Source: Saccharospirillum sp.
GTDB taxonomy: Bacteria; Pseudomonadota; Gammaproteobacteria; Pseudomonadales; Natronospirillaceae
Assembly: GCA_035704555.1 (NCBI GenBank)
Contig: DASSWT010000226.1
Coordinates: 1,414 to 65,413, forward strand
Reading direction: 5' to 3'
DNA length: 64,000 nucleotides
In this document: positions 32,227 to 57,369 of the stretch, one piece after another
Numbering within the stretch: the stretch's first letter is position 1
Layout: each line of letters begins with the position of its first letter
The notes under the pieces: generated by a model
What the model was told of the DNA's origin: nothing
Seen by the model: only the letters and a program-made list of their open reading frames with translations
The model's database searches: none
Position numbers and translations under genes: made by a program

Positions 32227-32352
32227 GCGCCAGGAGCCCGTATCGGGCACCGGGTATACCTATCCGGGGTCGGCGTGAACCCTTCCATGGGGCCTAGACC
32301 GCAGCATCCATGCTGCGGACTTCCCCGGATAGGTATACCCGGCACCCGATAC
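32227..32352 (+). repeat. Nested hairpin element copy R1
   Basis: Perfect 20-bp stem 32250-32269/32323-32342 around the 53-nt core TCGGCGTGAACCCTTCCATGGGGCCTAGACCGCAGCATCCATGCTGCGGACTT. Confidence 0.92.
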
Positions 32353-32361
32353 TCGTTCTGT

Positions 32362-32380
32362 GGTGGCAGATTTAATCTGC
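32362..32380 (+). repeat. Possible single REP-like unit (GTGG + 2 nt + GCAGATT-T-AATCTGC palindrome)
   Basis: The palindrome at 32366-32380 has GTGG shortly upstream and lies between R1 and R2. Confidence 0.35.
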
Positions 32381-32389
32381 AAATAGTAA

Positions 32390-32545
32390 TTCAAGTTATG
32401 GAGTTCGCGGAAGTGACAAGCGGCGGCTGCCGGGGGTACTCCTGTGGGGAAGTCCGCAGCATGGATGCTGCGGCCTAGGCTCAATGGACGGATCTACGCC
32501 GACCCCACAGGAGTACCCCCGGTAGCCGACGCGGATTCCTGGCAC
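32390..32545 (-). repeat. Nested hairpin element copy R2, with one degenerate terminal repeat
   Basis: Perfect 20-bp stem 32430-32449/32503-32522 around an inverted 53-nt core. TTCAAGTTATGGAGTTCG at 32390-32407. Confidence 0.9.
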
Positions 32546-32609
32546 AAAGGTAATAGCAACCGGCATAACGATGGCTGAGTAACAATTCGTTACCGCCGTC
32601 ATCGACTTT

Positions 32610-32637
32610 TTGACATGGCAGGGATGCGGCGTATTCT
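32610..32637 (+). promoter_or_regulatory. sigma70 promoter for phoH-ybeY-corC
   Basis: TTGACA (32610-32615), 16 nt, TATTCT (32632-32637). Confidence 0.6.
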
Positions 32638-32658
32638 TAGCTTATTCCGCTGTTTACA

Positions 32659-33693
32659 GTGCAACGTGAGAGGAACCAGAACACTTTGACTACCCCGTCC
32701 AATCTTGAGGCTGCGACAACAGCTTCCGATCTGCGGCACTTTGAGCTGCAACCTGATAATCCCCAGCGACTGGCCAGCCTGTGCGGCCTGGCTAACGACA
32801 ACCTCCGGCAGATTGAAGATCGCCTCGACATACGGGTCAATAACCGTGGCAATCGCTTTGAACTGGCCGGTGATGGCGGCAGCGTCGCGGCGGCCGAAGA
32901 CATTATCAAGCGGTTGTATCGGGAAACCAAAGGTGGCAAGGACTTATTGCCCGACACGGTTAACCTCTACTTGCAGCAATCTGAAGTCGATTCACTGACC
33001 GAGACCGACGGTTCCCAGCTGCATGAGCACAAACTCTATGTGCTGCATACGCCCAAGTCGGTGGTTAAGCCGCGCGGTCCCAACCAGCGTGCCTATGTGC
33101 ACAGCGTACTGACTCACGATATTAACTTTGGTGTGGGCCCGGCCGGTACCGGCAAGACCTTTCTGGCTGTCGCCTGTGCGGTGCATGCGCTGCAGAAAGA
33201 TCAGGTCAAACGTATTATTCTGGTTCGGCCTGCGGTGGAAGCCGGTGAAAAACTGGGTTTCCTGCCCGGCGACCTGAGCCAGAAAGTCGACCCCTATTTG
33301 CGCCCGCTGTACGACGCACTTTATGAAATGCTGGGCCTGGAGAAAGTCGACCGGCTGATCGAGCGCAACGTCATTGAAGTGGCGCCCCTGGCTTATATGC
33401 GCGGCCGTACGCTGAGCAACGCCTTTATCATTCTCGATGAGAGCCAGAACACCACCAAAGAACAGATGAAAATGTTTCTGACCCGTATTGGCTTTGGCTC
33501 TACTGCCGTGATCAACGGCGACCCGACTCAGGTCGATCTGCCGCGTGGTCAGCAATCGGGGCTGGCGCATGCACTGATGGTGCTCAAGGGTGTCAACGAC
33601 ATCAGCGTGACCCAGTTTGGCTCCAAAGACATTGTGCGTCACCCTCTGGTGCAACGCATCGTCGATGCGTACGACGCCCACGGAGACAACTGA
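32659..33693 (+). CDS. ybeZ: PhoH-like ATPase (YbeZ)
   Basis: Motifs [28 protein letters not shown] and [11 protein letters not shown]. Confidence 0.95.
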
Positions 33694-33701
33694 CCGCCGC
33701 C

Positions 33702-34223
33702 ATGAATGCCAGCACAGACCCCCTTCCTGCCGTCGACCTGGATGTGCAAATTGCATCCGGGGCTGCGAACCTGCCCGATGCCGATGATCTGTTGCTTTGG
33801 GTCGCCACTGCCTTGCAGGGGCAGAAAGACACGGCCAGCCTGACCATCCGGCTGGTCGATGATCCGGAAAGCCAGCAACTCAACAGCGACTACCGCGGTA
33901 AAGACTCGCCTACCAATGTATTGTCCTTCCCCTTTGAGGCACCGCCCGGTATTGACGACCCGGAGATCCAGGCGTTGCTGGGTGATCTGATCATCTGTGC
34001 TCCGGTGGTGGCCCGCGAAGCGGCCGACCAGGGCAAGCCGGTCCGGCATCACTGGGCGCACATGGTGGTCCATGGTACCTTGCATTTGCTGGGGCACGAC
34101 CATATTGAGCCAGCCGACGCCGAGATTATGGAGTCGCTGGAGCGCAGTATATTGGCCAAGCTCGGCATCGCCGACCCGTACTGGCTCGACAACCACTTGC
34201 CGACCGGTACACCCTCCCTATAA
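33702..34223 (+). CDS. ybeY: rRNA maturation endoribonuclease YbeY
   Basis: [13 protein letters not shown] and [11 protein letters not shown] metal motif. Confidence 0.96.
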
Positions 34224-34270
34224 TGGGTGGGCCCGACCGCAGGACTTTTTAGCAGAGGACACGCACTAGC

Positions 34271-35140
34271 ATGAGCGACGAACGACCCACGAGTAGCAGC
34301 CCCGGTAGGAAATCCTGGCTGGAACGCCTGTCGGATGCCTTTACCGGGGAGCCCAAAGATCGCGACGATTTGCTCAGTATCCTGAACAGCGCCCAGGAAA
34401 ACGACATTCTGGACGGTGAGGCCTTCAAAATCATTGAAGGCGCCATGAATGTGTCGGACATGCACGTCCGGGACATCATGATCCCCCGCTCCCAGGTGGT
34501 CAGCCTGGAAACCAACGACAGCATTCAGCACTGGCTGTCACTGATCGTGGAATCCGGTCACTCGCGCTTTCCGGTTCTGGGTGAAAACTCCGATGAAGTC
34601 GTCGGCGTGTTGCTCGCCAAAGACCTGCTGGGTCTCGGCCTGCAAACCCAGTTTGATCTGGACGAAATGAAAAAACGGTTGAACACCATCATTCGCAACG
34701 TCAACTTCGTGCCGGAAAGCAAGCGGCTGAATGTGTTGCTCAAAGACTTCCGCAGCAATCGCAATCACATGGCGGTCGTCGTTGACGAATACGGTCAGAC
34801 CGCCGGCCTGGTCACCATTGAAGACGTGCTGGAAGAGATCGTCGGTGAGATTGAAGACGAACACGACGACACCGTCGACGCCAACATCCGCCCCAACGGC
34901 AATGGCGGCTTTCTGGTGCAGGCACTGACCCCGATCGAAGATTTCAACGAGCATTTCTCGACCGAGCTGAGTGACGAGGAATTCGACACCATCGGTGGCA
35001 TTGTCATGCACCAGTTTGGCAAGGTGCCGCAGCGGGATGAATCCATCACCATGGGCAAGTTGCTGATCCGGGTCGTCAATGCCGATAACCGCCGGGTTCG
35101 CGCTTTTGAAGTGAATCACCTCGAACCCCAGGCCGACTGA
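34271..35140 (+). CDS. corC: HlyC/CorC family CBS-domain protein
   Basis: MIPRSQVV, SGHSRFPV, VVDEYG..AGLVTIEDVLEEIVGEIEDEHD and CorC_HlyC domain. Confidence 0.93.
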   Translation: MSDERPTSSSPGRKSWLERLSDAFTGEPKDRDDLLSILNSAQENDILDGEAFKIIEGAMNVSDMHVRDIMIPRSQVVSLETNDSIQHWLSLIVESGHSRFPVLGENSDEVVGVLLAKDLLGLGLQTQFDLDEMKKRLNTIIRNVNFVPESKRLNVLLKDFRSNRNHMAVVVDEYGQTAGLVTIEDVLEEIVGEIEDEHDDTVDANIRPNGNGGFLVQALTPIEDFNEHFSTELSDEEFDTIGGIVMHQFGKVPQRDESITMGKLLIRVVNADNRRVRAFEVNHLEPQAD

Positions 35141-35215
35141 TCCGCGCGGGTCCGGGGTCCGGATCCGCCACCCTCCCCCTTTTCCCGACCTGCCTGATTG
35201 GACATCCATGTTCCG

Positions 35216-35258
35216 GTAGCAGTCCAATGAAATTCGATGAATTTCATTGGACTGCTAC
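35216..35258. repeat. Perfect 20-bp inverted repeat with 3-nt loop and GTAG ends (REP-doublet-like)
   Basis: GTAGCAGTCCAATGAAATTC-GAT-GAATTTCATTGGACTGCTAC. Confidence 0.8.
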
Positions 35259-35290
35259 AGTGTGTGCAAAACTGAACGAAGGAGGCTTCC

Positions 35291-36667
35291 ATGCGTACTG
35301 AAAAAGACAGCTTTGGCGAACTATCGGTTCCGGACGATGTGCTTTACGGCGCGCAGACCGCGCGTGCCCTGTCCAATTTTGGCTTGTCTGGCGAGGTCAT
35401 GCCGTCCCGGTTCATTGAAGCCTGCCTTGCTATCAAGGCCGCCGCTGCTGCGGCCAATGCTGAACTGGATGTGGTCGCCGAAGATAAGGCCGAGGCTATT
35501 CAGAACGCCTGCCAGGCCGCTCGCGAGCACATCGATGAGCGCCAGTTCCCGGTCGACGTTTACCAGACCGGCTCCGGCACCAGCACCAACATGAACGTCA
35601 ACGAAGTCGTCGCCCATCTGGCCAGCATGGCCAGCGGGCTCGACATCAGCCCGAACGACGACGTCAACGCCAGCCAGAGCAGCAACGATACCATTCCCGC
35701 CGCCATTCAGATCAGCACCGCCCTGGCTCTGGAAGAGGAATTGTTGCCAGCCATTACGGCCCTGAAGAACAGCCTGAGCCAACAGGGTGACACCCATAAG
35801 AAGGTGGTTAAAACCGGTCGAACTCACCTGATGGATGCCATGCCGCTGACGGTGCAGCAGGAGTTTTCAGCCTGGATCGAAGCGCTGGACAGCTGCCAGC
35901 GACGCATCAACCAGTGCCTGCCCCGGCTCAAGGCACTGCCGCTGGGCGGAACCGCCATTGGCACCGGTATCAACGCTCCCAAAGGCTTTGCCGAGTCGGC
36001 TTGCCGGCATCTGAATCAGCGAATCGGTAACGACTTTTGCCCGCACAACAATGCCTTCTACGGCATCAGCACTCAGGATGTGTCAGTCGAGGTCTCGGGC
36101 TTGCTCAAGGGCCTGGCCACCAGCCTGATAAAAATCAGCAACGATCTGCGCTGGATGAACAGTGGCCCGCTGGCAGGTCTGGGCGAAGTGGTATTGCCCG
36201 CGCTGCAACCGGGCAGCAGCATCATGCCGGGCAAGGTTAACCCGGTGATTCCGGAAGCGGTGCTGATGGCGAGTTATCAGGTGATCGGTCACGACACGGC
36301 CATTACGCTGGGGGCGCAATCGGGGAATTTTCAGCTGAATGTCAGCCTGCCACTGATCGCCCGCAACTTGCTAGACAGCATCGCCCTGATGAGCCGCAGC
36401 TGCGAACACCTGGCACACAAGGTGATCGACGATCTGACAGTGAATCATGAAGCGCTGGCCGAACCTTTGCACCGCAATCCGATACTGGTGACAGCACTGA
36501 ACCCGGTACTGGGGTATCTGAAAGCGGCCGAGATCGCAAAAACTGCCTACGCCGACAACCGGCCGATCATCGACGTCGCTCTGGAAAAAACCGACCTGAG
36601 CCGGGAAGAGCTGGAAAACCTGCTCGACCCGGCCCGGCTGGCCCATCCTCACGATCAACACGACTGA
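35291..36667 (+). CDS. fumC: Fumarate hydratase class II
   Basis: QTGSGTSTNMN, KTGRTHLMDA and GSSIMPGKVNP motifs. AAGGAGG RBS. Confidence 0.95.
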   Translation: MRTEKDSFGELSVPDDVLYGAQTARALSNFGLSGEVMPSRFIEACLAIKAAAAAANAELDVVAEDKAEAIQNACQAAREHIDERQFPVDVYQTGSGTSTNMNVNEVVAHLASMASGLDISPNDDVNASQSSNDTIPAAIQISTALALEEELLPAITALKNSLSQQGDTHKKVVKTGRTHLMDAMPLTVQQEFSAWIEALDSCQRRINQCLPRLKALPLGGTAIGTGINAPKGFAESACRHLNQRIGNDFCPHNNAFYGISTQDVSVEVSGLLKGLATSLIKISNDLRWMNSGPLAGLGEVVLPALQPGSSIMPGKVNPVIPEAVLMASYQVIGHDTAITLGAQSGNFQLNVSLPLIARNLLDSIALMSRSCEHLAHKVIDDLTVNHEALAEPLHRNPILVTALNPVLGYLKAAEIAKTAYADNRPIIDVALEKTDLSREELENLLDPARLAHPHDQHD

Positions 36668-36671
36668 CCCG

Positions 36672-39269
36672 TCAGTCGTCGCTGCGATGGTGTCCTTCGA
36701 TGGTTCCAAATGGCCGCGTGAGAACGATCAGGCGCGGCAGCAGGGTCAGTGAGCCGAGCAAGGCCACCGCCATCGCCAGTGCCGTTAACAGACCAAAATA
36801 CAAGGTGGGCCGGAAGTTCGACATCATCAGAATGGAGAAGCCCAGAATGATGGTCAGGGAGGTGTAGAACATCGCCTTGCCAATGGTATTGTGGCTGCGC
36901 GCCAGCGCCCGGACATAGTCGCCATCTTTGGCAAATTCCCGCTGATAACGCACCAGGTAGTGAATGGTGTTGTCGACCGCCATGCCGATGGTAATGCTGG
37001 CAATGGTAATGGTCATCATATCGAGCGGAATACCAAACCAGCCCATTATGCCGAGCACAAAGGTGGCCGCCAACAGGTTGGGCGCCATCGCCAGCAAGCT
37101 GAGTTTAAGACTGCGGAACAGAATCAGGAACATCAGCAGGATACCCATGAATACCACGCCCAGGGTCAGAATCTGTGAGCCGAACAAACTTTGCAGCATG
37201 TTGTTGTACAGCACCATCATCCCGGTCAGTTGTACCTGGCCAGGCTCAAAGCCCAGTTTCTCGACCGCATCCCGTTCAATGCGTTGCAGCAAGGCATTGC
37301 GCTTGAGGCCGTCCATCGAATCCAGAATGCGCACGTTCAGTCGTGCCTGGTTGTGCTCAACCGAGACGTAGGGGTCGATAACCAGGTCGCGAAACTCACT
37401 GGGGATAACGGTATACAGCAGCGCCAACTGGACATTGGTTAGCGACTCGCCGCCATTGAACCCTTCTGCGATCTCGATCATCGTCGCCAGTGACAGGACC
37501 TTGCCGATTTCCGGTTGTTCATCCAGATAGCGATGCATCGCCTTGATGCGCGCAACTTTGGACTGGGTATACCAGTATTTTTCGGGGTCATCCACTCCCC
37601 CGAAATCGTCTCTGAAACTGCCTACCGAGGCACCACCACCGAAGCCTTCGTCAACAAACCCATCGTCTTCGGCAGAGCCTTCATCCGCAAACCCCTCGTC
37701 GACGAACCCCTCTGATTCAGGCTCCGCTGGCGCACTGGTGCTGCGCGGCGTAGCGGTATCCTCAAAATTGATCAGAACTTCCAGCGGCGTGGTTCCACCC
37801 AGGCGTTCGTCGATGACCGTCATGCCCTGATAGATGTCCGTGCTCTGGTCGAAATAATCGATAAAGCTGTTTTCCACCACCAGCCGGGTAATACCCACAA
37901 CAGTGAACGCCGCCAGCGCCAGGCTGGTTACCAGAACCGCATTGCCGGATTTCAGGGTGATGCGCGCGAGTAATCGAGTGGTTTTTCCGCCAGAGGCTTT
38001 TTCCGCGGTACGCTGATCCTTACCGGCCAGCAGCAACAAGGCTGGAAACAGGGAAAACGTCACGATAAAGGCACAGGTAATCCCCAGCGACATCATCCAG
38101 CCGAAGTTGATGACCGGCCGGATGCCACTGAACAACAGTGACATGAACGCCACACCTGTGGTCAGTGCCATATACAAACAGGGCACCGCGATACGTTTGA
38201 CAGAGGTCATCACCAGTTGTGCCTGATCCCAGTCGTGGTGTTTGCGCAGTAGCTCGCGGTAACGCACGATCAGGTGAATCGACATCGACAGCGTTAGAAT
38301 CAGCAACAGCGAAATAAAGTTGCTGGAGATCACCGTCACCGGCCATCGCCCCAGCCCCAGAATACCAAGCATGGTGACGACCACGGCACCGCAGCACAAC
38401 AGAGGCATGATCACCCAGCGCGGTTGCCGGAAAATCACCGTCAATGTCGCTATCAATAAAAACAGTACGCCCAGCCCAAAGGTGATCAGGTCATTGCGCA
38501 CAAAGGTAATGATGTCGTCCGCGATCATGGGCACACCGCCCAGAAACAACTGGGCGTCGTCCTGGTGGTCTGCCATCACCTCACGGACAGAGGCTATTGT
38601 ATCGTGGACCATGGCCGCGCGTCGGTTGCTTTGCTCTTCCAGCATAATCCCGACGCGCTCAAGATCAGCCGCGATCGACGCTCGAACATCACCAGAACCA
38701 GCCTGTTCTGTCAGTGACTCTTGTAATGTCAGCAATTGCTCCCGAGTTGTGTCTCGTGGCAGATTAATCTGCAGCGCCGTAGTGTTTTCTTCCAGATTAA
38801 GCAGCAAGTTGACATAGAGAGGGCTGTTGGCGAGTTCGGTTCGCGCCAGGTCGACATCCGTTTCCGGATCTTCCAGCGTTTTGATATTGGAGACCAACTC
38901 TGTCATTGGAACCGGCGGATTCGACAACAGCGGTACGTCCAGAACGGTCAGGACCGAATCGACTCCCCGGATCTGACGCAGATCATTGCGCAGAGATTCG
39001 AGCCCGGCCAGTGATGTCTCGGAGAACAGAGGGGTCGGTGGTGTGTAGGTCATCACCAGAAAATCCTGAGCGCCATAACGCTCAGCGGTCTCGCGGAACA
39101 GGGCCAGGTCTTCATCGTCTTCGAGCAACAAAGCATCTGCAGAGGCATCGAGACTGAAATGCCGGGCCTGGGTAGCCAGCAGCCCAATGACCACCACCAA
39201 CCCGATCAATACCCAGAGGGTGTAACCGGTCAGGATGCGCTGGTAAAGCGTCCACATTCGCTGGCCCAT
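36672..39269 (-). CDS. MMPL/RND-family (HpnN-like) transporter
   Basis: Two TM clusters with large periplasmic loops, GGVPMI..D and GMAVDNTIH motifs. Confidence 0.85.
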   Translation of the reverse strand: MGQRMWTLYQRILTGYTLWVLIGLVVVIGLLATQARHFSLDASADALLLEDDEDLALFRETAERYGAQDFLVMTYTPPTPLFSETSLAGLESLRNDLRQIRGVDSVLTVLDVPLLSNPPVPMTELVSNIKTLEDPETDVDLARTELANSPLYVNLLLNLEENTTALQINLPRDTTREQLLTLQESLTEQAGSGDVRASIAADLERVGIMLEEQSNRRAAMVHDTIASVREVMADHQDDAQLFLGGVPMIADDIITFVRNDLITFGLGVLFLLIATLTVIFRQPRWVIMPLLCCGAVVVTMLGILGLGRWPVTVISSNFISLLLILTLSMSIHLIVRYRELLRKHHDWDQAQLVMTSVKRIAVPCLYMALTTGVAFMSLLFSGIRPVINFGWMMSLGITCAFIVTFSLFPALLLLAGKDQRTAEKASGGKTTRLLARITLKSGNAVLVTSLALAAFTVVGITRLVVENSFIDYFDQSTDIYQGMTVIDERLGGTTPLEVLINFEDTATPRSTSAPAEPESEGFVDEGFADEGSAEDDGFVDEGFGGGASVGSFRDDFGGVDDPEKYWYTQSKVARIKAMHRYLDEQPEIGKVLSLATMIEIAEGFNGGESLTNVQLALLYTVIPSEFRDLVIDPYVSVEHNQARLNVRILDSMDGLKRNALLQRIERDAVEKLGFEPGQVQLTGMMVLYNNMLQSLFGSQILTLGVVFMGILLMFLILFRSLKLSLLAMAPNLLAATFVLGIMGWFGIPLDMMTITIASITIGMAVDNTIHYLVRYQREFAKDGDYVRALARSHNTIGKAMFYTSLTIILGFSILMMSNFRPTLYFGLLTALAMAVALLGSLTLLPRLIVLTRPFGTIEGHHRSDD

Positions 39270-39322
39270 ATAGGCTCCCTGTTAATGTTTCAATAACCCG
39301 CCTGTCGTCTCGTCACGCGGTT

Positions 39323-39775
39323 TCACAGCCAGCGACGCACCCGCTGGCAATAGGCGACATAGGCCTGACCATGTTGCTTGTACAGGCGTTCTTCCTCAGG
39401 CCGGACAAAAAGCCACTGCAAGGCTACCACAAAGACCGGCAATACTACCCAGGAAGACAGTGTTCCCACCCAAATCGCCAGGCCCGCCGCAATCATCAGT
39501 TGCCCCAGATACATGGGGTTGCGGCTGATCCGGTAAACGCCACGTTCCACCAGTGGCCCCCGAACCTCGCCAAAATCCACCGAGGCCCCTGCACGTTGCA
39601 GTTCCCGGTCAGCAATCAGATTCAGAGCGGCGCCAAACACCACGGGAATCAGACCCAGAAAATTCCACGGATACGGAAACAGCAGAGCCAGAGGCTTGAT
39701 GAAATGCAGTGAAAAGATGGCCAGCATGACCAGAAGACCGAGCGCCGGGGGTAAAAAAGGCGGCTTGTGAGACAT
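39323..39775 (-). CDS. Isoprenylcysteine carboxylmethyltransferase / PEMT-family membrane protein
   Basis: LV..GVYRISRNPMYLG and EE..L...HG.AY..Y...VRRWL motifs. Confidence 0.85.
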   Translation of the reverse strand: MSHKPPFLPPALGLLVMLAIFSLHFIKPLALLFPYPWNFLGLIPVVFGAALNLIADRELQRAGASVDFGEVRGPLVERGVYRISRNPMYLGQLMIAAGLAIWVGTLSSWVVLPVFVVALQWLFVRPEEERLYKQHGQAYVAYCQRVRRWL

Positions 39776-39899
39776 GAAACACCACTTGATTACAGAGTCA
39801 AAGCCTGAAAAGGCACGGTTTGGCGTCTTGGTCACGCCTGAGCAGAACAGACCCCAGTGTAATAGGCCCGGTCTCCAGTTACAGCCGTCGAAAGTCACC

Positions 39900-40520: not shown

Positions 40521-40541
40521 GCATCATCTCCCTGTGTCTTT

Positions 40542-41693: not shown

Positions 41694-41723
41694 TGTTGCG
41701 ACCTACCAAGCTGACCAAATGGA

Positions 41724-42956
<1,233 letters not shown>

Positions 42957-43068
42957 TCACCTGAACCGGCCCCAAAAATTGGGTTGTTTGCTCGGCGGCT
43001 TTTGCCACGAAGCGTCAATATAGCATTTGTACTAACCACGATGGCGCTTGATACCCAAGCCTGGAGTC

Positions 43069-43260
43069 AGAACTCAAGTTTCGGAGTTCGGGTTGCCTTT
43101 GAGGCATTGGCCCGCGCCGGATACCGGGTGTACCCCTGTGGGGTCGGCGTAAATCCATCCATGGAGCCTAGACCGCAGCATCCATGCTGCGGACTCCCCC
43201 ACAGAGGCACACCCGGCACCCGCCGCTCGTCACCTCAGCGAACTCCGAAACTTGAGTTCT
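43069..43260 (+). mobile_element. MITE-like element: 22-bp perfect terminal inverted repeats enclosing hairpin copy R3
   Basis: AGAACTCAAGTTTCGGAGTTCG at 43069-43090 and its reverse complement at 43239-43260. Stem 43124-43143/43197-43216, core 43144-43196. Confidence 0.8.
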
Positions 43261-43307
43261 AAATTTGCACCTGTGGCCGAAGCAACAACGACAACAAGTA
43301 CCGGTGG

Positions 43308-43472
43308 CTGGGTAGGCCTGTCCGGGGTAGTCTGAGGCATGGACTAAAACGCCAGGAGCGTTTTAGCACGAGCAACAGCGAGCCCGAAGGGTGAATCCCA
43401 TGGACGGGATTCATATCCCGAAGCCTAGGCCCCATGGACGGGTTAACGCCGGCCCCGGATAGGCCTACCCGA
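43308..43472 (-). repeat. Hairpin element copy R4 carrying a ~72-nt nested insert
   Basis: Stem 43308-43327/43453-43472. The core spans 125 nt instead of 53. Confidence 0.85.
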
Positions 43473-43516
43473 CCGCCTGCACGCTTTCTGCCACTGAACA
43501 CCATAAAGCCACCCAT

Positions 43517-43544
43517 AAAAAAAGCCCTGCAAGGCAGGGCTTTT
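43517..43544 (-). terminator. Intrinsic terminator of rplU-rpmA
   Basis: AAAAGCCCTGC-AAG-GCAGGGCTTTT hairpin with a minus-strand T-run. Confidence 0.85.
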
Positions 43545-43565
43545 CAGAGTGTGTCAAAGTGCCAA

Positions 43566-43820: not shown

Positions 43821-43832
43821 GGTTTCTCTCCG

Positions 43833-44144: not shown

Positions 44145-44270
44145 GTATCTCTCCAATGATTAAAACCAATCCGACCCGCAGCGATTCATTACTTAACCTG
44201 TGTCTAAAGGCAACGCCTACGCTGGGAGCACCCTATAACAGGGAATGAAGCAGGTCGATCAGGGCGCGCA

Positions 44271-48261: not shown

Positions 48262-48273
48262 CCTGATAAAGCC

Positions 48274-48840: not shown

Positions 48841-48978
48841 AGAGTTGCGTCCTATTCTGTAAAAGTCATTTCAGGGAGGCCACCCGTGCACCTGCACCCC
48901 GGTGTTCCCTGCGTCAGTCGTTGTTATCTTTGAACCGCTCATGCGATAAATCAAGGGGCTGTATACCAGCCCGCCTGG

Positions 48979-50211
48979 TTATGAGCGCAGCGACAGGTCC
49001 GGATCATCGCCGCTTGCCTGGCGGCTGGCCGAACCGGCCGATGAACCAGCCACACTCCGATCAAGCGCCCATAGTAACACCATCCACACCAGCATCACTG
49101 CGATGCTGATCATAGCAATGCCCATCATTTCCCATTGCTGGTAGGCCCAACCGCCACAGAGCCCACCCAGGGCCGCACCCAGAAACTGACCGGTTGAAAA
49201 CACGCCCATGGCGGTGCCCCGTGCATGTTCGGGGGCACGACGGCTAATCAGCGACGGCAGGCTGGCTTCGACAAAGTTAAAGCCCACGAAGAACAACCAG
49301 ACCAGGCCGATACTCAGCCAGGCCACTGAACTCAGCCCGAGACCTGCCATGGCCAGGGTGATAAAAGCCCCGGCAAGGATCAAAAACACCCGATGCGCCT
49401 TGCGACGCTCAGCCAGCGCAATCATCGGCACCATGCCTAAAAAGGACAACACCATCACCGGCGCATAAACCCAGCCGAGCTGGTCACCCAGCACGCCTTG
49501 CTGAACCAGCACGACCGGCAACCCGACAAACATCATCGTCATGGTCAGGTGCAATACAAACACACCGATATTCAAGGGCACCAGTTGGCGGTCACGAACC
49601 ACCCTTCCGAGCTGACTGCCCTGCCAGCGACGCTCTTCATGTACTTTCGCTGCCGGTGGAGCCGGTAACCAGAACACGATCACCAGGCCAGCCAGCGCCA
49701 TCAGCGAGGTCGCCCAGAACACCCCGGACAACCCAAACGCACTGGCGATCACCGGGCCAACAATCACCGCCAGCACAAAGGAGCCACCAATAATGGCGCC
49801 AACGATGGCCATCGCCTTGGTACGCTCTTCCGGGCGAGTATAATCGGCCAGCAACGCCAGAATAACACTGGCAATGGCGCCCGCACCCTGTAGAGCACGG
49901 CCAATCACCACACCTAGCACATGCTCGGAAAGGGCTGCGATCACCGACCCGAGGATAAATATCAACAAACCGGCGGCGATAACGGGTTTACGGCCAAACC
50001 GATCAGACAGCATCCCCAGAGGAATCTGCAGCACCGCCTGGGTAATGCCATAGATCCCCAACGCAATACCCAACAGCACGGTGGTGGCACCGGTCAGAGA
50101 CTGGCCATACAAGGTCAGAATCGGCAGTACCATGAAAAGACCGAGCATGCGCGAGGCATACAACAGTGCCAAGCCTGTCAGCGCCTTTTTTTCCAAACTA
50201 TTAAAAGCCAT
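48979..50211 (-). CDS. yajR: MFS transporter, YajR family
   Basis: RMLGLFMVLP, GIYGITQAVLQIP and GRALQGAGA motifs. Conserved uvrA-MFS-ssb order. Confidence 0.85.
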   Translation of the reverse strand: MAFNSLEKKALTGLALLYASRMLGLFMVLPILTLYGQSLTGATTVLLGIALGIYGITQAVLQIPLGMLSDRFGRKPVIAAGLLIFILGSVIAALSEHVLGVVIGRALQGAGAIASVILALLADYTRPEERTKAMAIVGAIIGGSFVLAVIVGPVIASAFGLSGVFWATSLMALAGLVIVFWLPAPPAAKVHEERRWQGSQLGRVVRDRQLVPLNIGVFVLHLTMTMMFVGLPVVLVQQGVLGDQLGWVYAPVMVLSFLGMVPMIALAERRKAHRVFLILAGAFITLAMAGLGLSSVAWLSIGLVWLFFVGFNFVEASLPSLISRRAPEHARGTAMGVFSTGQFLGAALGGLCGGWAYQQWEMMGIAMISIAVMLVWMVLLWALDRSVAGSSAGSASRQASGDDPDLSLRS

Positions 50212-50387
50212 ATATCGGCAGTGTCCGTAATGTCCCAGGTTCAGAGCCCAGGCTGATCAATTGAGTCTGTTAACTAGAGTCGATACAAAGTCGCGCATGG
50301 TACCAGAAATGATTCCGGTTAGGCTTGCCACAGGCGGGTATTTTCCACGTCGGTTGCACTGTATTCGCGGGTTACTTAGTCGACACA

Positions 50388-50510
50388 GCCTGAATCCGTG
50401 CCCGACATCGGGTACGCCCCTGACGGGACGCTGCAAGTACATCCATGTAAGCTCGGCGGTCCCCATCCATGGGGACCGACGCCCGCCAGGGGCGCACCCG
50501 ATGCCAGGCA
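50388..50510 (+). repeat. Hairpin element copy R5 with a variant core
   Basis: Stem 50406-50427/50482-50503, 54-nt core, inner hairpin CGGTCCCCAT-CC-ATGGGGACCG, and arm AATCCGTGCCCGACATCGGG similar to R2 and R6. Confidence 0.8.
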
Positions 50511-50562
50511 CTAGCCTGAGTCGGCAACCTTAGCTATAAAGCGATTCAGGATATTCTGAAAC

Positions 50563-50591
50563 TTGGGTTCTGTACGTTTATACAGTAAACT
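50563..50591 (+). promoter_or_regulatory. LexA (SOS) box CTGT-N8-ACAG inside a putative uvrA sigma70 promoter
   Basis: CTGTACGTTTATACAG at 50570-50585, with TTGGGT (50563-50568), 17 nt, TAAACT (50586-50591). Confidence 0.85.
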
Positions 50592-50606
50592 GGGCCGCTT
50601 GCTTAG

Positions 50607-50790
50607 CTCAAGTTTCGGAGTTCGCCACCAACTGAGTGTCAGGTGCCGGGTATGCCTATCTGGGGAAGCCTGAGGCATGAATGCCGAAGTCTAGGCCCCA
50701 TGGATGGGTTAACGCCGGCCCCAGATAGGCATACCCGGTGCCGGACACGGATTCCTGGCACCAAGTCAAACCCGAACTCCGAAACTTGAG
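50607..50790 (-). mobile_element. MITE-like element enclosing hairpin copy R6
   Basis: CTCAAGTTTCGGAGTTCG at 50607-50624 and its reverse complement at 50773-50790. Perfect stem 50646-50665/50719-50738. Confidence 0.8.
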
Positions 50791-50853
50791 TTGCTTAACT
50801 GCCCAGCCTGGCAGTCGCAACCATCATCGTAACAGCCGGAAAAAGAGGAAGGC

Positions 50854-53703
50854 ATGGACAAGATTTCCGTCCAGGGGGCTCGCACCCATAACCTGAAGAA
50901 CATCGATGTGGACATCCCACGCGATAAACTCGTCGTTATTACCGGCCTGTCCGGGTCGGGCAAATCGTCCCTGGCTTTCGATACTCTCTATGCCGAAGGC
51001 CAGCGTCGCTACGTCGAATCATTATCGACCTATGCCCGCCAGTTCCTGTCGATGATGGAAAAGCCCGATGTCGATCACATCGAAGGGCTGTCGCCGGCCA
51101 TTTCCATCGAGCAGAAGACCACCAGCCATAACCCGCGCTCAACCGTGGGCACCACCACCGAAATTTACGACTATCTGCGCCTGCTGTATGCGCGGGTGGG
51201 CGAACCACGCTGCCCCGAGCACGATGAACCGCTGGAAGCCCAGACCATCAGCCAGATGGTCGACCAGGTGCTGGCGCTGCCCGAGGGCAGCAAGCTGATG
51301 ATGCTGGCGCCAATCATTGATGACCGCAAGGGTGAGCACCTGCATGTATTCAACGAACTGCGCTCTCAGGGGTTCGTGCGGGTGCGGGTCGATGGCACGG
51401 TTATGGACCTCGATGAAGTGCCCGAGCTCGATAAGAAACGCAAGCACAGCATCGAAGCCGTGGTTGACCGCTTCAAGGTACGGGACGATCTGAAATTGCG
51501 CCTGGCGGAATCCTTCGAGACCTGCCTGACGCTCTCTGGCGGCATCGTAAAAATGGTCTACATGGACGGCGACGGGCCTGACATGCTGTTTTCCAACCGC
51601 TTTGCCTGCCCGGTCTGCGGCTATTCCATTGCCGAACTCGAACCGCGTATGTTCTCGTTCAACAACCCGGCCGGTGCCTGCGAGCAGTGCGACGGCCTGG
51701 GCATGAAACAGTATTTCGACGGCAGCAAGGTGGTGCGCGACACGGCCCTGTCGCTGGCCGAAGGGGCGATACCCGGCTGGGACCGGCGCTCGGTCTATTA
51801 TTTCAGTCAGTTGCAATCCCTTGGCGAGCATTACGGCGTCGACATCGACCAGCCGTTCAAAGACCTGCCCAAGCGTTTTCAACGCTATGTACTGGACGGT
51901 ACCGGCAAAACAGAAATCGATTTCTCCTATGTGAACAGCCGAGGCGCCACCTACTCGCGCAGCCATGCCTTTGAAGGCGTGATGCCCAATATGGAGCGCC
52001 GCTACCGGGAAACCGACAGCCAGATGGTGCGCGAAGAATTGTCGAAGTTCCTTACCGAACAGGACTGTCCGGGCTGTCACGGCAGCCGTTTGAAACAAAG
52101 CGCACGCCATGTATTTGTCAAAGGCATCAACTTGCCCGAAGTTACTCACATGGCCATTGGCGACTCCCTGACCTACTTCCAGGAACTGACGCTGACCGGC
52201 TCACGCGCCCAGATCGCCGACAAGATCCTGCGTGAAATTGTTCAGCGCATGACCTTTCTGGTCAACGTCGGGCTCGACTACCTGACGCTCGACCGCAGCG
52301 CCGACACCCTCTCCGGCGGTGAAACCCAGCGCATTCGCCTCGCCAGCCAGATCGGCGCCGGCCTGGTTGGCGTGATGTACATTCTGGACGAACCCTCCAT
52401 CGGTCTGCACCAGCGCGACAACGACCGCCTGCTGGAAACCCTGACCAACCTGCGCGATATGGGCAACACCGTTTTGGTAGTCGAGCACGATGAAGACGCC
52501 ATTCGCGCAGCCGACTTTGTGCTCGACATCGGCCCCGGTGCCGGTATTCATGGCGGGCACATCGTCGCCTCGGGCACCCCGGCCGACATCATGGCCCACC
52601 CCGAGTCGCTGACCGGTCAGTACCTGAGTGGCAAACAGCGCATTGAGGTACCGAAAAAACTAACGCCGATGGACCCGAAGAAACTCATTACCATCACCGG
52701 TGCGCGCGGAAACAACCTCAACGATGTGACCCTGAACCTGCCAGTCGGTCTCTTTACCTGCGTCACCGGGGTATCCGGTTCCGGTAAATCAACACTGATC
52801 AACCAAACACTGCACCCACTGGCGGCTACTGTTCTGAACAAAGCCACCACCCTGACCCCGGCGGCGCATGAGAGCATCAGTGGCCTGGAGCATTTCGACA
52901 AGGCGGTCGACATCGACCAGAGCCCGATCGGCCGTACCCCGCGCTCGAACCCGGCGACCTATACCGGCATATTCACCGCCATCCGCGAACTGTTCGCGGG
53001 CACCCAGGAAGCGCGGTCACGCGGTTACCAGCCGGGGCGGTTCAGCTTTAACGTCAAGGGCGGTCGTTGCGAGGCTTGCCAGGGCGATGGCCTGATCAAG
53101 GTGGAAATGCACTTCCTGGCCGATATCTACGTCCCCTGCGATGTATGCACTGGCAAACGTTACAACCGTGAGACGCTCGACATCCGATACAAAGGCAAGA
53201 ACATTCACGAAGTGCTGGAAATGACCATCGAAGAGGGCCGAGCCTTCTTCGACGCCATTCCGGCGCTGTCACGCAAGCTGCAAACCCTGATTGATGTCGG
53301 CCTGACCTACGTCAAACTGGGGCAAAGCGCGACCACCCTGTCGGGCGGTGAAGCCCAGCGCGTCAAGCTGGCGCGGGAACTGTCGAAGCGCGACACCGGT
53401 AATACGCTGTACATTCTGGATGAGCCCACCACCGGCCTGCATTTTCACGACATCAAGCAATTGCTGGCGGTCCTGCACCGGCTGCGTGACCACGGCAACA
53501 CCGTCGTGGTGATCGAACACAACCTGGATGTCATCAAAACGGCTGACTGGATCATAGATTTGGGACCGGAAGGCGGTAGTCGTGGCGGTTACATCATCGC
53601 CGAGGGCACGCCCAAAGACGTAGCCAATAACAAGGCCTCGGCGACCGGTAAGTACCTGAAGCCGCTGCTGAAAGCCGGCGCAAAAGCCCTGGAAACGGCC
53701 TAA
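50854..53703 (+). CDS. uvrA: Excinuclease ABC subunit A
   Basis: [18 protein letters not shown], two LSGGE signatures and zinc fingers. Confidence 0.99.
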
Positions 53704-53706
53704 CAC

Positions 53707-53732
53707 AAGAACCCCGTTAGCGGGGTTCTTTT
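53707..53732. terminator. Bidirectional terminator between uvrA and mazG, overlapping the last mazG codons
   Basis: AAGAACCCCG-TTAG-CGGGGTTCTT followed by TT. Confidence 0.8.
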
Positions 53733-54538
53733 GCCTTGGCCTGGTTCCAGAACGCATCCAGGCTGTCGAGATTGTGTGCGGACCAGTCACCACCGCCAGC
53801 CTGAACCTGCTGTTCGACCTGACTGAACCGGGATTCAAACTTACGCGCAGCTTTGCGCAGCGCCTGTTCCGGATCAACCTCCAAGTGACGCGACAAGTTG
53901 GCGATCACAAACAACAGATCGCCAAGCTCTTCTTCAGTATGGGCGGCATCGCCCGAAGCTGCGGCCGCACGCAATTCAGCCAGCTCTTCATCAACCTTAT
54001 CGAAAACACCACTGGCATCCGGCCAGTCAAACCCAACCCGGGCAGCCCGCTTCTGCAACTTGCGGGCGCGCAGCAAACCAGGCAATGAACGCGGTACATC
54101 GTCCAGCAGTGACACAGCACGGCCACTGTTCTGCTTCTCAACGTCTTTCAACTGATCCCACTGACCGTTCACCGTACCGGCATCGGTTTGCTGATTCGGG
54201 TCTATTTGGCTTTCAAGCGTACCGGCCGGAAACACATGAGGGTGGCGGCTGATCAGCTTGGCGACCAGATCGTGAACCACATCATCGAGGTCAAAGCGCT
54301 GTTCTTCAGCCGCTATCTGGGCATAAAACACCACCTGAAACACCAGGTCACCCAGCTCCTCCCGAAGGTGTGCGTAGTCGCCCCGCTCAATGGTGTCGAT
54401 CACCTCATACACCTCTTCCAGGGTATGAGGAACAATCGACTCGTAAGTCTGCTCCAGATCCCACGGGCACCCGGTACCCGGCGTGCGCAACCGCTGCATC
54501 AGCGTTTTAAGATCGTGATAATCGTATCGTTGAGTCAA
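53717..54538 (-). CDS. mazG: Nucleoside triphosphate pyrophosphohydrolase
   Basis: LR.P..GCPWD.EQT, EELGDL (twice) and QKRAARVGFDW. TTG start. Confidence 0.95.
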   Translation of the reverse strand: MTQRYDYHDLKTLMQRLRTPGTGCPWDLEQTYESIVPHTLEEVYEVIDTIERGDYAHLREELGDLVFQVVFYAQIAAEEQRFDLDDVVHDLVAKLISRHPHVFPAGTLESQIDPNQQTDAGTVNGQWDQLKDVEKQNSGRAVSLLDDVPRSLPGLLRARKLQKRAARVGFDWPDASGVFDKVDEELAELRAAAASGDAAHTEEELGDLLFVIANLSRHLEVDPEQALRKAARKFESRFSQVEQQVQAGGGDWSAHNLDSLDAFWNQAKAKEPR

Positions 54539-54556
54539 ATTAGTCTGCCTGTTCCT

Positions 54557-54748
54557 AGCTCAAGTTTCGGAGTTCGCGGTTGACTATGTTGCCAGTCGCC
54601 CGCACCGGCCACCAGGTAGGACTATCGAGGGTCGGCGTAAACCCATCCATGGGGCCTGGACCGCAGCATCCCTGCTGCGGACCACCCTCGATAGTCCTAC
54701 CTGGCATCCGGTGCTAACTCTGTGCAAGCGAACTCCGAAACTTGAGCT
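54557..54748 (+). mobile_element. MITE-like element enclosing hairpin copy R7
   Basis: Perfect 21-bp terminal inverted repeat 54557-54577/54728-54748 and perfect stem 54612-54631/54685-54704. Confidence 0.8.
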
Positions 54749-54766
54749 GTAAGCTCCTAAGTGCCA

Positions 54767-57013
54767 TTAATGCTTCACGCGCGGCATTACTCGCCGCACA
54801 TCGGCTACGTTGGCGATTTTGGACAACTGGGCCATGACTTTACCTAAGGAATCGATGTCCTCTATCTCCACCGTCAGCCGCATGTCTGCCTGGCTTTCAT
54901 CCTTGTTCGACAGGGTGTTAACCGAGGTCACGTTAATATTGCTGTTGGCCATGATCATCATGATGTCGCGCAGCAGGCCGGTGCGGTCATAAGCCAGAAT
55001 ATTCAGTTCGACCGGATAGGTGCGGCGGGTCTCACCGCCCCAGCTAACTTCAATGATCCGCTCCGGCTCACGGTCTTTCATTTGCAGCAGATTCACGCAG
55101 TCCTGCCGGTGGATCGAAACGCCCCGACCCAGGGTGATATAACCCACCACCGGATCGCCCGGTACCGGCTTACAGCAGTTGGCAATCTGCGTCATCATGT
55201 TGCCGACGCCGTGAATCATCAGATCGCCACTGGGTTTGAGCTCACTGGCCGTCGACAGCTGAATTTCATCCGGCCGTGCCGGGTTAACCATGGCTTCCGC
55301 CGAATGCACCACCTGCATCAGACGCAAGTCGCCAGCCCCAATGGCCGCGTACATGTCGTCAGCCATTTGAAAGTTTACCCGCTTGGCCAGTTCATCCATA
55401 TCCAGCTTGGGCAGATTGAAGCGTTGCAACTCACGCATCAGCATGGCTTTGCCATCACGCAGGTTCTCGGTCCGGTCCAGTGACTTGAACCAGTGACGAA
55501 TTTTGGCGCGGGCCCGGGAACTGTGTACATAACCCAGGTCCGGGTTCAGCCAGTCGCGGCTGGGCGCCGGATCCCGGCCGGTCAGCACCGACACCTGATC
55601 GCCGATTTTAAGGCGATGGGTCAACGGAACAATACGCCCGTTCACCTTGGCACCCCGACAACGGTTACCGACATCGGTGTGGATCTTATAGGCGAAATCG
55701 ATCGGTGTGGCGCCCTTGACCAGATCAATGACGTGACCTTCAGGCGTCAGCACGTAGATGCGGTCGGTCGCGACATCCGCGCCCCACTCTTCCACCATTT
55801 CATGGATGTCACCGAGTTCATCGTGCCATTCAAGCACCTGGCGCAGCCAATTGACCTTCTCTTCATAACCGCGTGAGTGCGCCTTGCCTTTGGCATCGGT
55901 GCCTTTGTAGACCCAGTGCGCACAGATCCCCAGTTCGGCATCGTCGTGCATCTCATGGGTGCGGATCTGCACTTCCACCACCTTGCCTTCCGGCCCGATA
56001 ACGGCAGTGTGCAATGAGCGATAACCGTTGGATTTGGGCGAGGCGATGTAATCGTCAAATTCGCGGGGAATGTGGCGCCACAGAGAGTGAACAATACCGA
56101 GCACGGTGTAGCAATCGCGCACATCCGGCACCAGCACGCGAAATGCCCGAATGTCGTATACCTGGCTGAAGCTGATGTTCTTGCGCTTCATTTTGCGCCA
56201 GATCGAATAGATGTGCTTCGCCCGCCCCTGAATCTCGGCCTTAATGGCGGCCTTGCTGACTTCTTCCTGGAGAATGTTTTGCACGTTTTCGATGTAGCGC
56301 TGACGGTCCAGGCGCTTTTCATCGAGCAGCTTGGCGATCTTCTTGTAATCGAGGGGTTCGATGTAGCGAAAAGAGAGGTCTTCGAGCTCCCACTTCAGGT
56401 GGCCCACACCCAGGCGATGGGCCAGTGGCGCGTAAATATCGAACACCTCCCGCGCCACCTTGTAGCGACGCTGCGCCGGCGCGTTCTTGACCGCCCGAAT
56501 CGCGCAAGTCCGTTCCGCCAGCTTGATCAGCGCAACGCGAACGTCATCGATCATCGCCACCAGCATCTTGCGCACCGCTTCACCCTGGGTTTCGTGCTGG
56601 CCCAGCACCGCCCGGCGCGTCGACTTGTGTTTGGTATGGATGGCGGCCATGCGCAGCACGCCTTCAATCAGCGTGGCTACCTGCGGGCCGAACTGGTCGC
56701 GAACGGTATCCAGCGGCAGCTCTTCCTCACGCACGGTACGGTAGAGAATGGCTGCGATGATGGCGTCCTGGTCGAGGTTCAGCTCCGACAGGATTTCAGC
56801 CATTTCCAGCCCGGTACGGTAAGCCGACTCACCCTCACCCCAGTGGTTCTTGGGTGTGTCAGTCTCTTCTTCGGCGACTCTGGCAATGCGACAGGCACGC
56901 AGCAGCTCTTCCCGGTCGAGCAAGGGGTTTTGCCGTTCCACGCGGACCAGCCACGACTCGAGGTCCACCGTTCCATCACTGAATACGGGTTGATCTTCGC
57001 GTACCTTAACCAT
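54767..57013 (-). CDS. relA: GTP diphosphokinase ((p)ppGpp synthetase)
   Basis: APLAHRLG, GRAKHIYSIWRKM, YRSLHT and EVQIRT motifs, with TGS and ACT domains. The HD hydrolase motif is absent. Confidence 0.97.
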   Translation of the reverse strand: MVKVREDQPVFSDGTVDLESWLVRVERQNPLLDREELLRACRIARVAEEETDTPKNHWGEGESAYRTGLEMAEILSELNLDQDAIIAAILYRTVREEELPLDTVRDQFGPQVATLIEGVLRMAAIHTKHKSTRRAVLGQHETQGEAVRKMLVAMIDDVRVALIKLAERTCAIRAVKNAPAQRRYKVAREVFDIYAPLAHRLGVGHLKWELEDLSFRYIEPLDYKKIAKLLDEKRLDRQRYIENVQNILQEEVSKAAIKAEIQGRAKHIYSIWRKMKRKNISFSQVYDIRAFRVLVPDVRDCYTVLGIVHSLWRHIPREFDDYIASPKSNGYRSLHTAVIGPEGKVVEVQIRTHEMHDDAELGICAHWVYKGTDAKGKAHSRGYEEKVNWLRQVLEWHDELGDIHEMVEEWGADVATDRIYVLTPEGHVIDLVKGATPIDFAYKIHTDVGNRCRGAKVNGRIVPLTHRLKIGDQVSVLTGRDPAPSRDWLNPDLGYVHSSRARAKIRHWFKSLDRTENLRDGKAMLMRELQRFNLPKLDMDELAKRVNFQMADDMYAAIGAGDLRLMQVVHSAEAMVNPARPDEIQLSTASELKPSGDLMIHGVGNMMTQIANCCKPVPGDPVVGYITLGRGVSIHRQDCVNLLQMKDREPERIIEVSWGGETRRTYPVELNILAYDRTGLLRDIMMIMANSNINVTSVNTLSNKDESQADMRLTVEIEDIDSLGKVMAQLSKIANVADVRRVMPRVKH

Positions 57014-57186
57014 CAGCTACTCTTGTGTTATTCAAATCACGGCATAGCCTGACTATGCCCGGACATCCTGTCATTGGGTCACCCCGAAAACGGGCGCACC
57101 TTAGTCATTGAACCTCGCGGACGCAAGCGGCGTTCCGCAATTGCCTTCTCGCCTTAGCCAGTTTCGGGCCAGGTTGTGCCTTAGGA

Positions 57187-57369
57187 CTCAAGTTTCGGAG
57201 TTCGGTCGACTAGGAGGTATTGGCCCGCACCGGCTACCGGGTATGCCCCTGTGGGGTCGGCGTAGATCCATCCATGGAGCCTAGACCGCAGCATCCATGC
57301 TGCGGACTACCCCACAGGGGCACACCCGGCACCCGCTGCTAGTCTTTTAGGCGAACTCCAAAACTTGCG
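57187..57369 (+). mobile_element. MITE-like element enclosing hairpin copy R8
   Basis: Terminal repeat at 57187-57204, degenerate partner at 57352-57369 abutting the cysM stop. Stem 57237-57256/57310-57329. Confidence 0.78.

Follow-up and report, generated by a model that had tools for sequence, protein, structure and literature searches.

YPAL/RU-2-type hairpin repeats in Saccharospirillum: probable miniature insertion elements whose fold is maintained on one strand

The window analysed here is a 64,000-nucleotide stretch of Saccharospirillum sp. DNA (contig DASSWT010000226.1 of assembly GCA_035704555.1, positions 1,414 to 65,413). It is an ordinary chromosomal stretch that carries eight copies of a hairpin-forming repeat, R1 to R8, all of them intergenic. 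Relative to the neighbouring genes their order is miaB, R1, R2, phoH; obg, R3, R4, rpmA-rplU; an MFS transporter gene, R5, R6, uvrA; and mazG, R7, relA, R8 and a cysM-like gene. An earlier note on this DNA had described the copies as a dispersed, intergenic, non-coding and non-autonomous repeat family, and this description is supported by the present analysis. The eight repeats are probably YPAL/RU-2-type miniature insertion elements (non-coding, non-autonomous and resembling miniature inverted-repeat transposable elements, MITEs) that are abundant in Saccharospirillum and its neighbours.

Copies outside the window, and the counts given for them below, come from a pattern scan of one genome per species, which returned at least 99 8-kb blocks, with about 158 elements among the matches listed. 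A covariance model (CM) derived from 43 copies, all from other genomes, finds exactly eight matches in the window (85-148 bits, E values from 1e-21 to 1e-38), together with weaker echoes of these on the opposite strand. An nhmmer profile built from four complete copies recovers the same eight and no extra ones, so that the positions first proposed are borne out by both models. A 37-nt core pattern allowing up to three mismatches matches five times in the window and never in 100 dinucleotide-preserving shuffles. The copies and their associated features are as follows, the strand being the one that carries the GGA loops and the scores being those of the CM:

32230-32362, minus strand: R1, central hairpin (stem of about 30 bp, 53-nt core, stem) with decayed termini; 147.6 bits.
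32388-32554, plus strand: R2, central hairpin (CM match 32410-32542) and one decayed terminus (32388-32408, AATTCAAGTTATGGAGTTCGC); 137.7 bits, also found by nhmmer.
43073-43256, minus strand: R3, complete, 184 bp, CTCAAG...CTTGAG, between obg and rpmA; 138.5 bits.
43288-43492, plus strand: R4, with a 74-nt module in the loop of hairpin A and decayed termini; 85.5 bits over 205 nt.
43344-43417, plus strand: the module inserted in R4, CTAAAACGCC-AGGA-GCGTTTTAG ... GAATCCC-ATGGAC-GGGATTC.
50365-50569, minus strand: R5, of a divergent subfamily, CM core 50388-50521 and right terminal remnant at about 50553-50570; 95.7 bits, also found by nhmmer.
50599-50606 (left, TTGCTTAG) and 50791-50798 (right, TTGCTTAA), no strand: 8-bp direct repeat around R6, read from the sequence and from flank analysis; a probable target-site duplication.
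50607-50790, plus strand: R6, complete, 184 bp, with the uvrA start codon 63 nt downstream; 124 bits.
54559-54746, minus strand: R7, complete, 188 bp, 20 nt from the relA stop codon and 20 nt from the mazG start codon; 138.6 bits.
57187-57369, minus strand: R8, complete, 183 bp, abutting the stop codon (57370-57372) of a PALP (cysM-like) gene and lying 173 nt upstream of the relA start codon; 139 bits.

Three inverted pairs can be recognised among them (R1/R2, R3/R4 and R5/R6). In R1, R2, R4 and R5 one or both termini are missing, but a central hairpin of about 130 nt is kept. The G+C content of the window elements is 61-68%.

The complete unit measures 183-188 bp, and across genomes mostly exactly 184 bp, with termini running from CTCAAGTTTCGGAGTT to AACTCCGAAACTTGAG (CTCAAG...CTTGAG). 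It forms one long hairpin whose arms covary inward from the termini. The contiguous stem is about 30 bp long rather than the roughly 20 bp initially described, and pairing extends as far as the termini. Over 196 nt, R7 folds from one end to the other with -135.1 kcal/mol, its shuffles giving -69.9 ± 4.0 (z = -16.2). A conserved 53-nt platform with two small hairpins caps the structure; one of the two, hairpin A, has a G+C-rich stem of 7 bp. This core has exactly the length reported before in R1, R2, R3, R6, R7 and R8. R5 (CM match of 134 nt vs 133) represents a second subfamily with other small-hairpin stems and identical loops, and its core is the closest to that of Yersinia YPAL (GAGCTTACATGGATGTACTTGCAGCGT). 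The octamer CATCCATG does occur twice per core, as the earlier note said, but both copies, and not only the second, lie at hairpin tips. On the opposite strand it reads CAUGGAUG, and there both small hairpins end in invariant A-N-GGA-N hexaloops (two per core, four with the module). This GGA strand, opposite to the one on which the consensus was originally read, is the strand under selection (see below). Three other identities were considered and dropped: a coding ORF, in view of covariation lacking codon periodicity and of a conserved CTAG; a sigma-54 promoter in the conserved GGCATTGGCCCGCA stretch, which has the wrong spacing; and integron attC sites, the copies lying between housekeeping genes and not in arrays.

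The core gives the family its name, which the earlier note could not assign. RU-2 is identical to YPAL, a 168-nt Y. pestis repeat whose sequence is printed in Delihas 2007 (PMC2759123). Its centre, GTCCGCGCCAAGGATGGCGCGGCTCGAGCCTACATGGATGTATTTACGGCG, aligns to the family profile over the whole core (RU-2 positions 66-116, E = 5e-4) in a search set made of RU-2 and 2000 shuffles of it, no shuffle being reported at E ≤ 10. R5-type elements have the stretch CGAGCCTACATGGATGTATTYACGGCGT in common with RU-2, each copy differing at no more than a few positions. The overall architecture of the RU-2 fold is also like that of the window elements, with -68.1 kcal/mol on the GGA strand and -59.4 kcal/mol on the other. 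On this sequence evidence the 53-nt core is homologous to that of YPAL/RU-2. In Rfam the repeat is entered as Ysr224 (RF02770, 'Yersinia sRNA 224'), a weak match but the best non-miRNA one at permissive thresholds, obtained through window positions 43114-43196. No match is found in the window at Rfam gathering thresholds, and E-value thresholds otherwise return only generic long-hairpin miRNA models. The printed Ysr224 consensus is the reverse complement of RU-2/YPAL, and Ysr224 is therefore a dispersed repeat, not a single sRNA gene.

The window family shares YPAL traits wherever these are testable. Both have the homologous core of about 50 nt, with two small hairpins tipped by (A/U)CA-N-GGA-N-G, a linker and UUYACGNCG; both form one long G+C-rich hairpin of 170-190 nt that is more stable on the GGA strand; both lie in intergenic regions near stop codons, with variable short target duplications (putative ones in the window family) and sites filled or empty between relatives; and no transposase association is known for either. 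In the literature (PMC2229807) YPAL is described as about 168 bp long, not A+T-rich, with target duplications varying from 3 to 26 bp, and as recently mobile, its targets lying at or beside dyad symmetries. The same source reports that YPAL is co-transcribed with upstream genes and possibly affects the stability of their mRNA. The differences concern the periphery. Arms and termini lack sequence similarity; the window family measures 184 bp, YPAL 167-168 bp; the former carries terminal inverted repeats (CTCAAG...CTTGAG) whereas YPAL is described with internal ones only; an optional 71-74-nt module occurs in the window family; and the hosts are Oceanospirillales in one case, Yersinia and Pectobacterium in the other. 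This match to a described repeat removes much of the novelty. What the comparison adds is an extension of the YPAL type to a distant gammaproteobacterial order, with only the two-hairpin cap conserved across that distance.

The single-stranded fold is under strong constraint, in agreement with the structured repeat first proposed. When 43 diverse copies are aligned without gaps, compensatory double changes are seen in 36 of the 45 pairs that RNAalifold predicts. Standard pairs fill 97.3% of cells against 80.3% in shuffles, and both sides of a pair are changed in 328 cells against 83. None of 500 shuffles matches any of the observed pairing measures, and shifting the partners lowers pairing to 29-43%. 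The pair at alignment columns 20/114 is a conserved G·U, found as such in 25 of the 43 copies. Over 117 canonical copies the long stem shows 318 G·U mismatches on the GGA strand vs 128 on the other, and 111 of the copies reach a lower minimum free energy (MFE) as the GGA strand than as its complement (mean -84.9 vs -76.1 kcal/mol). The A and GGA positions of the loops are conserved in 116-117 of the 117 copies in both small hairpins, beside one N position per loop that varies freely.

Orthologous copies display the same pattern in place. R1 and its ortholog in the metagenome-assembled genome (MAG) M30B14 (L070) differ by five compensated pairs and one G·U change, and their three core changes all fall at loop N positions or at a variable core position. 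Between R2 and its ortholog in the same MAG there are six compensated pairs, three wobble changes and five core changes, not all of the latter at loop N or variable positions. The spacer between R1 and R2 is only about half identical to that of M30B14. An ortholog of R8 is present in MAG CBFGUW (L051). Taken over six strictly orthologous pairs of elements, 213 base pairs are unchanged, 34 compensated and 8 disrupted; single changes that give G·U number 12 on the GGA strand and 1 on the other (p = 0.003); and changes affect none of 48 loop A/GGA sites but 7 of 24 N positions. The asymmetry is alike whether the surrounding genes run with the GGA strand (75:41, MFE difference -7.4) or against it (54:28, MFE difference -7.2), and this indifference to gene direction means that the polarity is intrinsic to the element and not to the host transcript. 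The fold is maintained on one strand, in situ at orthologous loci, whatever the direction of the neighbouring gene. Such in-situ, strand-specific purifying selection on resident copies is a further new result.

These data bear on the view that the repeats are selfish DNA palindromes lacking any single-strand function, their arms being kept complementary by intramolecular template switching or by gene conversion between copies. Quasi-palindrome correction is an established mutational process, hundreds of donor copies per genome would be available for conversion, and single conversions could have produced the compensated blocks of several bases, for example the ATA/TAT to TGG/CCA change between R1 and its ortholog. 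However, a strand-symmetric process predicts neither the 12:1 excess of G·U on one strand, nor the conserved G·U pair at columns 20/114, nor strict conservation of loop A/GGA beside free N positions, and we regard this explanation as unlikely.

The family is spread well beyond the window. Among the matches listed, nearly all blocks belong to Saccharospirillum (impatiens, alexandrii, salsuginis, HFRX-1 and several MAGs); Nitrincola alkalilacustris and a Natronospirillum MAG contribute a single block each. Extrapolation from the at least 99 blocks gives a rough estimate of several hundred copies per genome. The window has no close match among the listed blocks, the best being MAG M30B14 at 82-85% identity; its sequence occurs in soil metagenomes. 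Elements tend to lie close to stop codons that face them (at most 20 nt away in 58 of 134 cases; median 30 nt), and convergent gene pairs make up 31% of element-bearing regions vs 20% of all intergenic regions. A BLAST search of a plasmid collection with a central element returned no match.

Signs of mobility, which the earlier note had proposed, come from several sides. The obg-proB spacer is empty in the window (41694-41723, 30 nt), while in S. salsuginis it measures 432 nt (L034 6450-6882) and holds an element pair, one of the main type and one of the R5/YPAL type. In other filled/empty contrasts an M30B14 element is missing in MAG CBFGUW, and two further MAGs differ in one member of a pair; divergence between the species is too great for these contrasts to fix exact insertion points. 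Direct repeats of 5-8 bp are found next to the ends in 11 of the 36 complete copies, shuffled pairings giving 13% (these repeats are seen at filled sites, without matching empty ones); examples are TTAAAA, TTGTAA and the TTGCTTAG/TTGCTTAA repeat of R6. Fixed positions across distant relatives, with no empty alleles, had been named as an argument against mobility. Fixed positions are found for R1/R2 and R8, whose orthologs occupy the same sites in species diverged by about 15-25%, and these copies are old residents rather than recent jumps; elsewhere, sites are filled in one species and empty in another.

The window contains no nearby transposase, as first reported: none, Y1/HUH enzymes included, was detected among the 50 of 53 predicted genes that were scanned with Pfam. 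The genes matched are all ordinary chromosomal ones, and four have no match at E 1e-10. A RAYT, HUH or DDE transposase gene flanked by the same repeat ends had been suggested as a target of search. Ten genes bracketed by two elements were inspected and all are ordinary chromosomal genes with no transposase among them, whole genomes not having been searched. No parent transposon of the elements was found either.

The terminal inverted repeats (TIRs) and the non-coding copies of even size, mostly 184 bp, fit TIR-type MITEs, which a DDE transposase moves in trans. An 83-bp mini-element of S. impatiens (L028 4606-4688) carries the family termini CTCAAGTTTCGGAATT...AACTCCGAAACTTGAA and a flanking TATATAA direct repeat without the long stem or core, which suggests that the termini alone may be enough for mobilisation. 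The 71-74-nt module provides a second level of insertion. It is present in 19 elements of six genomes besides the window, where R4 holds the single copy, and brings two further hairpins with GGA loops. Its position is invariant, directly 3' of CAUGGA in hairpin A, also in the R5-type subfamily, and none was seen outside an element. Module copies are 90-100% identical to one another, and in two cases only one of two near-identical orthologous elements carries the module (L014 vs L062, L013 vs L082), which implies a recent and precise gain or loss. In these sequences it behaves like a tiny site-specific insertion in its own right.

Adjacent inverted pairs obey a strict rule. All 18 (the three of the window and 15 elsewhere, for example L004 3161-3485 and L025 6156-6479) are arranged head-to-head in the GGA direction, that is, plus at left and minus at right on the strand originally read, with spacers of -1 to 144 nt; the reverse arrangement is never seen. 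Taken with strand-specific selection, this rule points to a polarity intrinsic to the element, arising either from its own transcription or from a strand-specific insertion step. The second of these would fit a single-stranded DNA hairpin element of the REP/REPIN-RAYT or IS200/IS605 kind, in which an HUH enzyme reads the loops and the asymmetry marks the transposed strand. The asymmetry is indeed independent of host transcription, and a single orientation in all 18 pairs is expected of strand-specific insertion on both sides of a dyad target, of the kind reported for YPAL (PMC2229807). Nevertheless, enzymes of the IS200/IS605 type do not produce 5-8-bp flanking direct repeats; orientation shows no significant bias with local GC skew (79 vs 64); GTAG occurs in the family only where alignment column 41 is T, so that the conserved tetranucleotide typical of REP/REPIN-RAYT systems is lacking; no HUH gene lies among the 50 window genes scanned or between element pairs, whole genomes not having been searched; and the upkeep in situ of copies with decayed termini cannot serve transposition. 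This alternative appears quite improbable.

The other source of polarity, own transcription, would suit independent small-RNA genes of the CsrB/RsmZ type, each with its promoter and terminator. Multiple GGA hairpin loops, selection on one strand irrespective of host genes, and a head-to-head rule that would avoid convergent transcription of complementary RNAs all accord with such genes. Yet a consensus scan detected no sigma-70-like promoter or intrinsic terminator inside the six copies of the 42.9-57.5 kb stretch, the spacer upstream of R1 and R2 lacks interspecies conservation, no Rfam match to a Csr/Rsm RNA was obtained, and the roughly estimated several hundred copies per genome would be unprecedented. 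We consider this the most improbable of the explanations.

The reading that we prefer, YPAL/RU-2-type miniature insertion elements, can be extended into a sequence of steps of decreasing certainty. The copies would be spread in trans, through short staggered cuts made by a transposase whose gene lies elsewhere, as indicated by the 5-8-bp flanking direct repeats and by the 83-bp mini-element reduced to its termini. As the copies scanned contain neither a promoter nor a terminator consensus, they would be transcribed within neighbouring transcripts. Analogy with YPAL, ERIC and Correia elements suggests that the RNA hairpin may then act as a stability or processing element at 3' ends or between cistrons. 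The last and least certain step, which we put forward tentatively, is docking of the global regulator CsrA at the two to four GGA loops. Transcription data are compatible with several situations. In two metatranscriptomes (X25 and X26; undirected contigs compared with window positions 53700-58300 and L025 4400-6600) the element cores have a much higher word depth than the genes, reaching about 737 in X26 against 61 for glnA. This may reflect transcription of many copies, their collapse into one contig, or DNA carry-over.

CsrA docking deserves attention in view of the loops themselves. The two GGA triplets of one core are 23 nt apart, a spacing within reach of a bridging CsrA dimer. [quoted passage not shown] RsmE contacts the conserved A and the GGA of an ANGGAN loop, whose N positions are variable (PMC7652899). 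The YPAL and R5-type loop UACAUGGAUGUA agrees with the SELEX consensus at all positions but one. Docking of CsrA by the GGA loops is thus conceivable from the sequence, if far from assured. It would account for the conservation of the cap alone between Yersinia and Saccharospirillum and for its retention in old copies.

The same observations lend themselves to a variant in which resident copies are domesticated CsrA-docking modules, selected for two to four high-affinity sites and acting, hundreds of copies together, as a distributed sponge or in Csr control of neighbouring genes, mobility accounting only for their arrival. Several features speak for it: the two ANGGAN hexaloops of each core, which are perfect and invariant, are closed by C-G and vary only at N; the near-consensus YPAL/R5-type loop; the two GGA loops supplied by each inserted module; a core that Enterobacterales and Oceanospirillales have in common, unlike the arms, as would be the case for a core read by a conserved host protein; and old copies that keep the fold in situ in spite of decayed termini. 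The window also encodes, at 58423-61332 on the plus strand, a 969-aa hybrid sensor kinase (HAMP-HisKA-HATPase-REC-Hpt) that adjoins the cysM-like gene and relA. BarA/GacS is the kinase at the top of the Gac/Csr cascade, and the architecture and neighbourhood of this protein suggest a BarA/GacS-like enzyme and a Gac/Csr pathway in the organism, a further point for the domesticated modules. Against them, about half of the single copies are antisense to the surrounding genes, whose transcripts would then not present the GGA loops; the consensus scan detected no promoter belonging to the copies; the long perfect duplex would more likely attract RNase III; and loop conservation could serve a transposase or another protein equally. 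This variant is a possible one, to which we nonetheless give less than even weight.

Several points weigh against the preferred reading, from the identification to the final CsrA step. As arms, termini and length are unlike those of YPAL, the homology rests on about 50 nt and a common architecture, and Ysr224 scores 19.1 bits with R3 and 13.5 bits with R5, far below its gathering threshold of 70. Flanking direct repeats are seen in only about 30% of complete copies, no mobilising enzyme was found in the window or between element pairs, and a cut-and-paste enzyme acting on symmetric ends does not explain the one-way orientation of the 18 pairs. Strand selection regardless of gene direction is awkward for elements transcribed as passengers only. 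Concerning CsrA, very stable stems may disfavour its binding (PMC7652899), and the stable 7-bp G+C-rich stem of hairpin A may therefore count against docking. The lack of any preferred orientation of single copies relative to genes also sits badly with it. No csrA gene was found in the 841 kb of sampled DNA, which is uninformative, and three stranded raw-read metatranscriptomes gave 0-2 reads per run, which allows no reading of the strand.

For decades, neither a function nor a mobilising enzyme has been agreed on for intergenic hairpin repeats of the ERIC and YPAL kinds, and the loop match to the CsrA consensus makes the function of this orphan class testable at the bench. In its broadest form the proposal would be that YPAL-type repeats constitute a superfamily of Enterobacterales and Oceanospirillales whose conserved part is a pair of high-affinity CsrA sites, and that their dispersed copies, several hundred per genome by rough estimate, form a genome-wide, transcription-coupled layer of CsrA docking or titration, selected on one RNA strand, with sites doubled by the module. 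This generalisation is doubtful; if true, it would be the first mobile family known to spread sites of a global post-transcriptional regulator and would provide a function for repeats orphaned for 20 years. On the practical side, the elements cause assembly breaks and spurious sRNA calls, Ysr224 being one such call.

Other known systems resemble the family to different degrees. ERIC elements (IRU, RU-1) are likewise imperfect palindromes of transcribed intergenic regions, found in either orientation and in copy numbers varying by species, with RNA-level effects on neighbouring mRNAs reported in Yersinia; in their larger variants about 70 bp is inserted, at fixed sites within the element. ERIC is, however, 127 bp long, more A+T-rich and ends in TA, with no sequence or model similarity to the window elements. 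Membership in ERIC was rejected, an E. coli ERIC copy scoring 5.9 bits in the covariance model and having only short words in common by eye. The MITE-like Correia/NEMIS elements of Neisseria are also co-transcribed, and their long RNA hairpins are RNase III substrates; by analogy, the 60-80-bp duplex of the window elements would be an obvious one. In contrast, Correia elements have conserved inverted-repeat ends of 24-26 bp, a TA duplication and an IHF site, lack a conserved two-hairpin cap and show no sequence similarity to the family. REP, BIME and REPIN-RAYT systems share with it abundant extragenic palindromes, inverted doublets and a location downstream of genes, but REPs are 20-40 nt long, have a conserved 5' GTAG and flank a single-copy HUH gene, whereas the unit here is 184 bp with flanking direct repeats, and the sampled DNA showed no HUH gene. 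CsrB, RsmY and RsmZ similarly present several hairpins with GGA loops matching the CsrA/RsmE consensus. Dedicated genes, between one and a few in number, encode these RNAs and have terminators and promoters that depend on GacA/UvrY, in contrast to dispersed promoter-less copies (several hundred by rough estimate) set in a long duplex, and there is no homology.

Some observations concern individual copies. The elements of the window flank stress and stringent-response genes (relA, mazG, obg and uvrA). relA lies between the complete R7 and R8, with the GGA strand sense to relA and mazG; further copies stand next to obg and uvrA. Regulation of relA by CsrA is reported for E. coli, which may be a coincidence. 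Between R4 and the rpmA stop codon, a clean intrinsic terminator, AAAAAAGCCCTGCAAGGCAGGGCTTTTC (43516-43547), is readable on both strands and places the R3/R4 pair downstream of the rplU-rpmA terminator and upstream of obg. A sigma-70-like promoter for phoH (32605-32640; TTGACA, 17 nt, TATTCT), strongly conserved in MAG M30B14, lies downstream of R2. R1 and R2 are therefore outside the phoH leader, between the miaB stop codon and this promoter.

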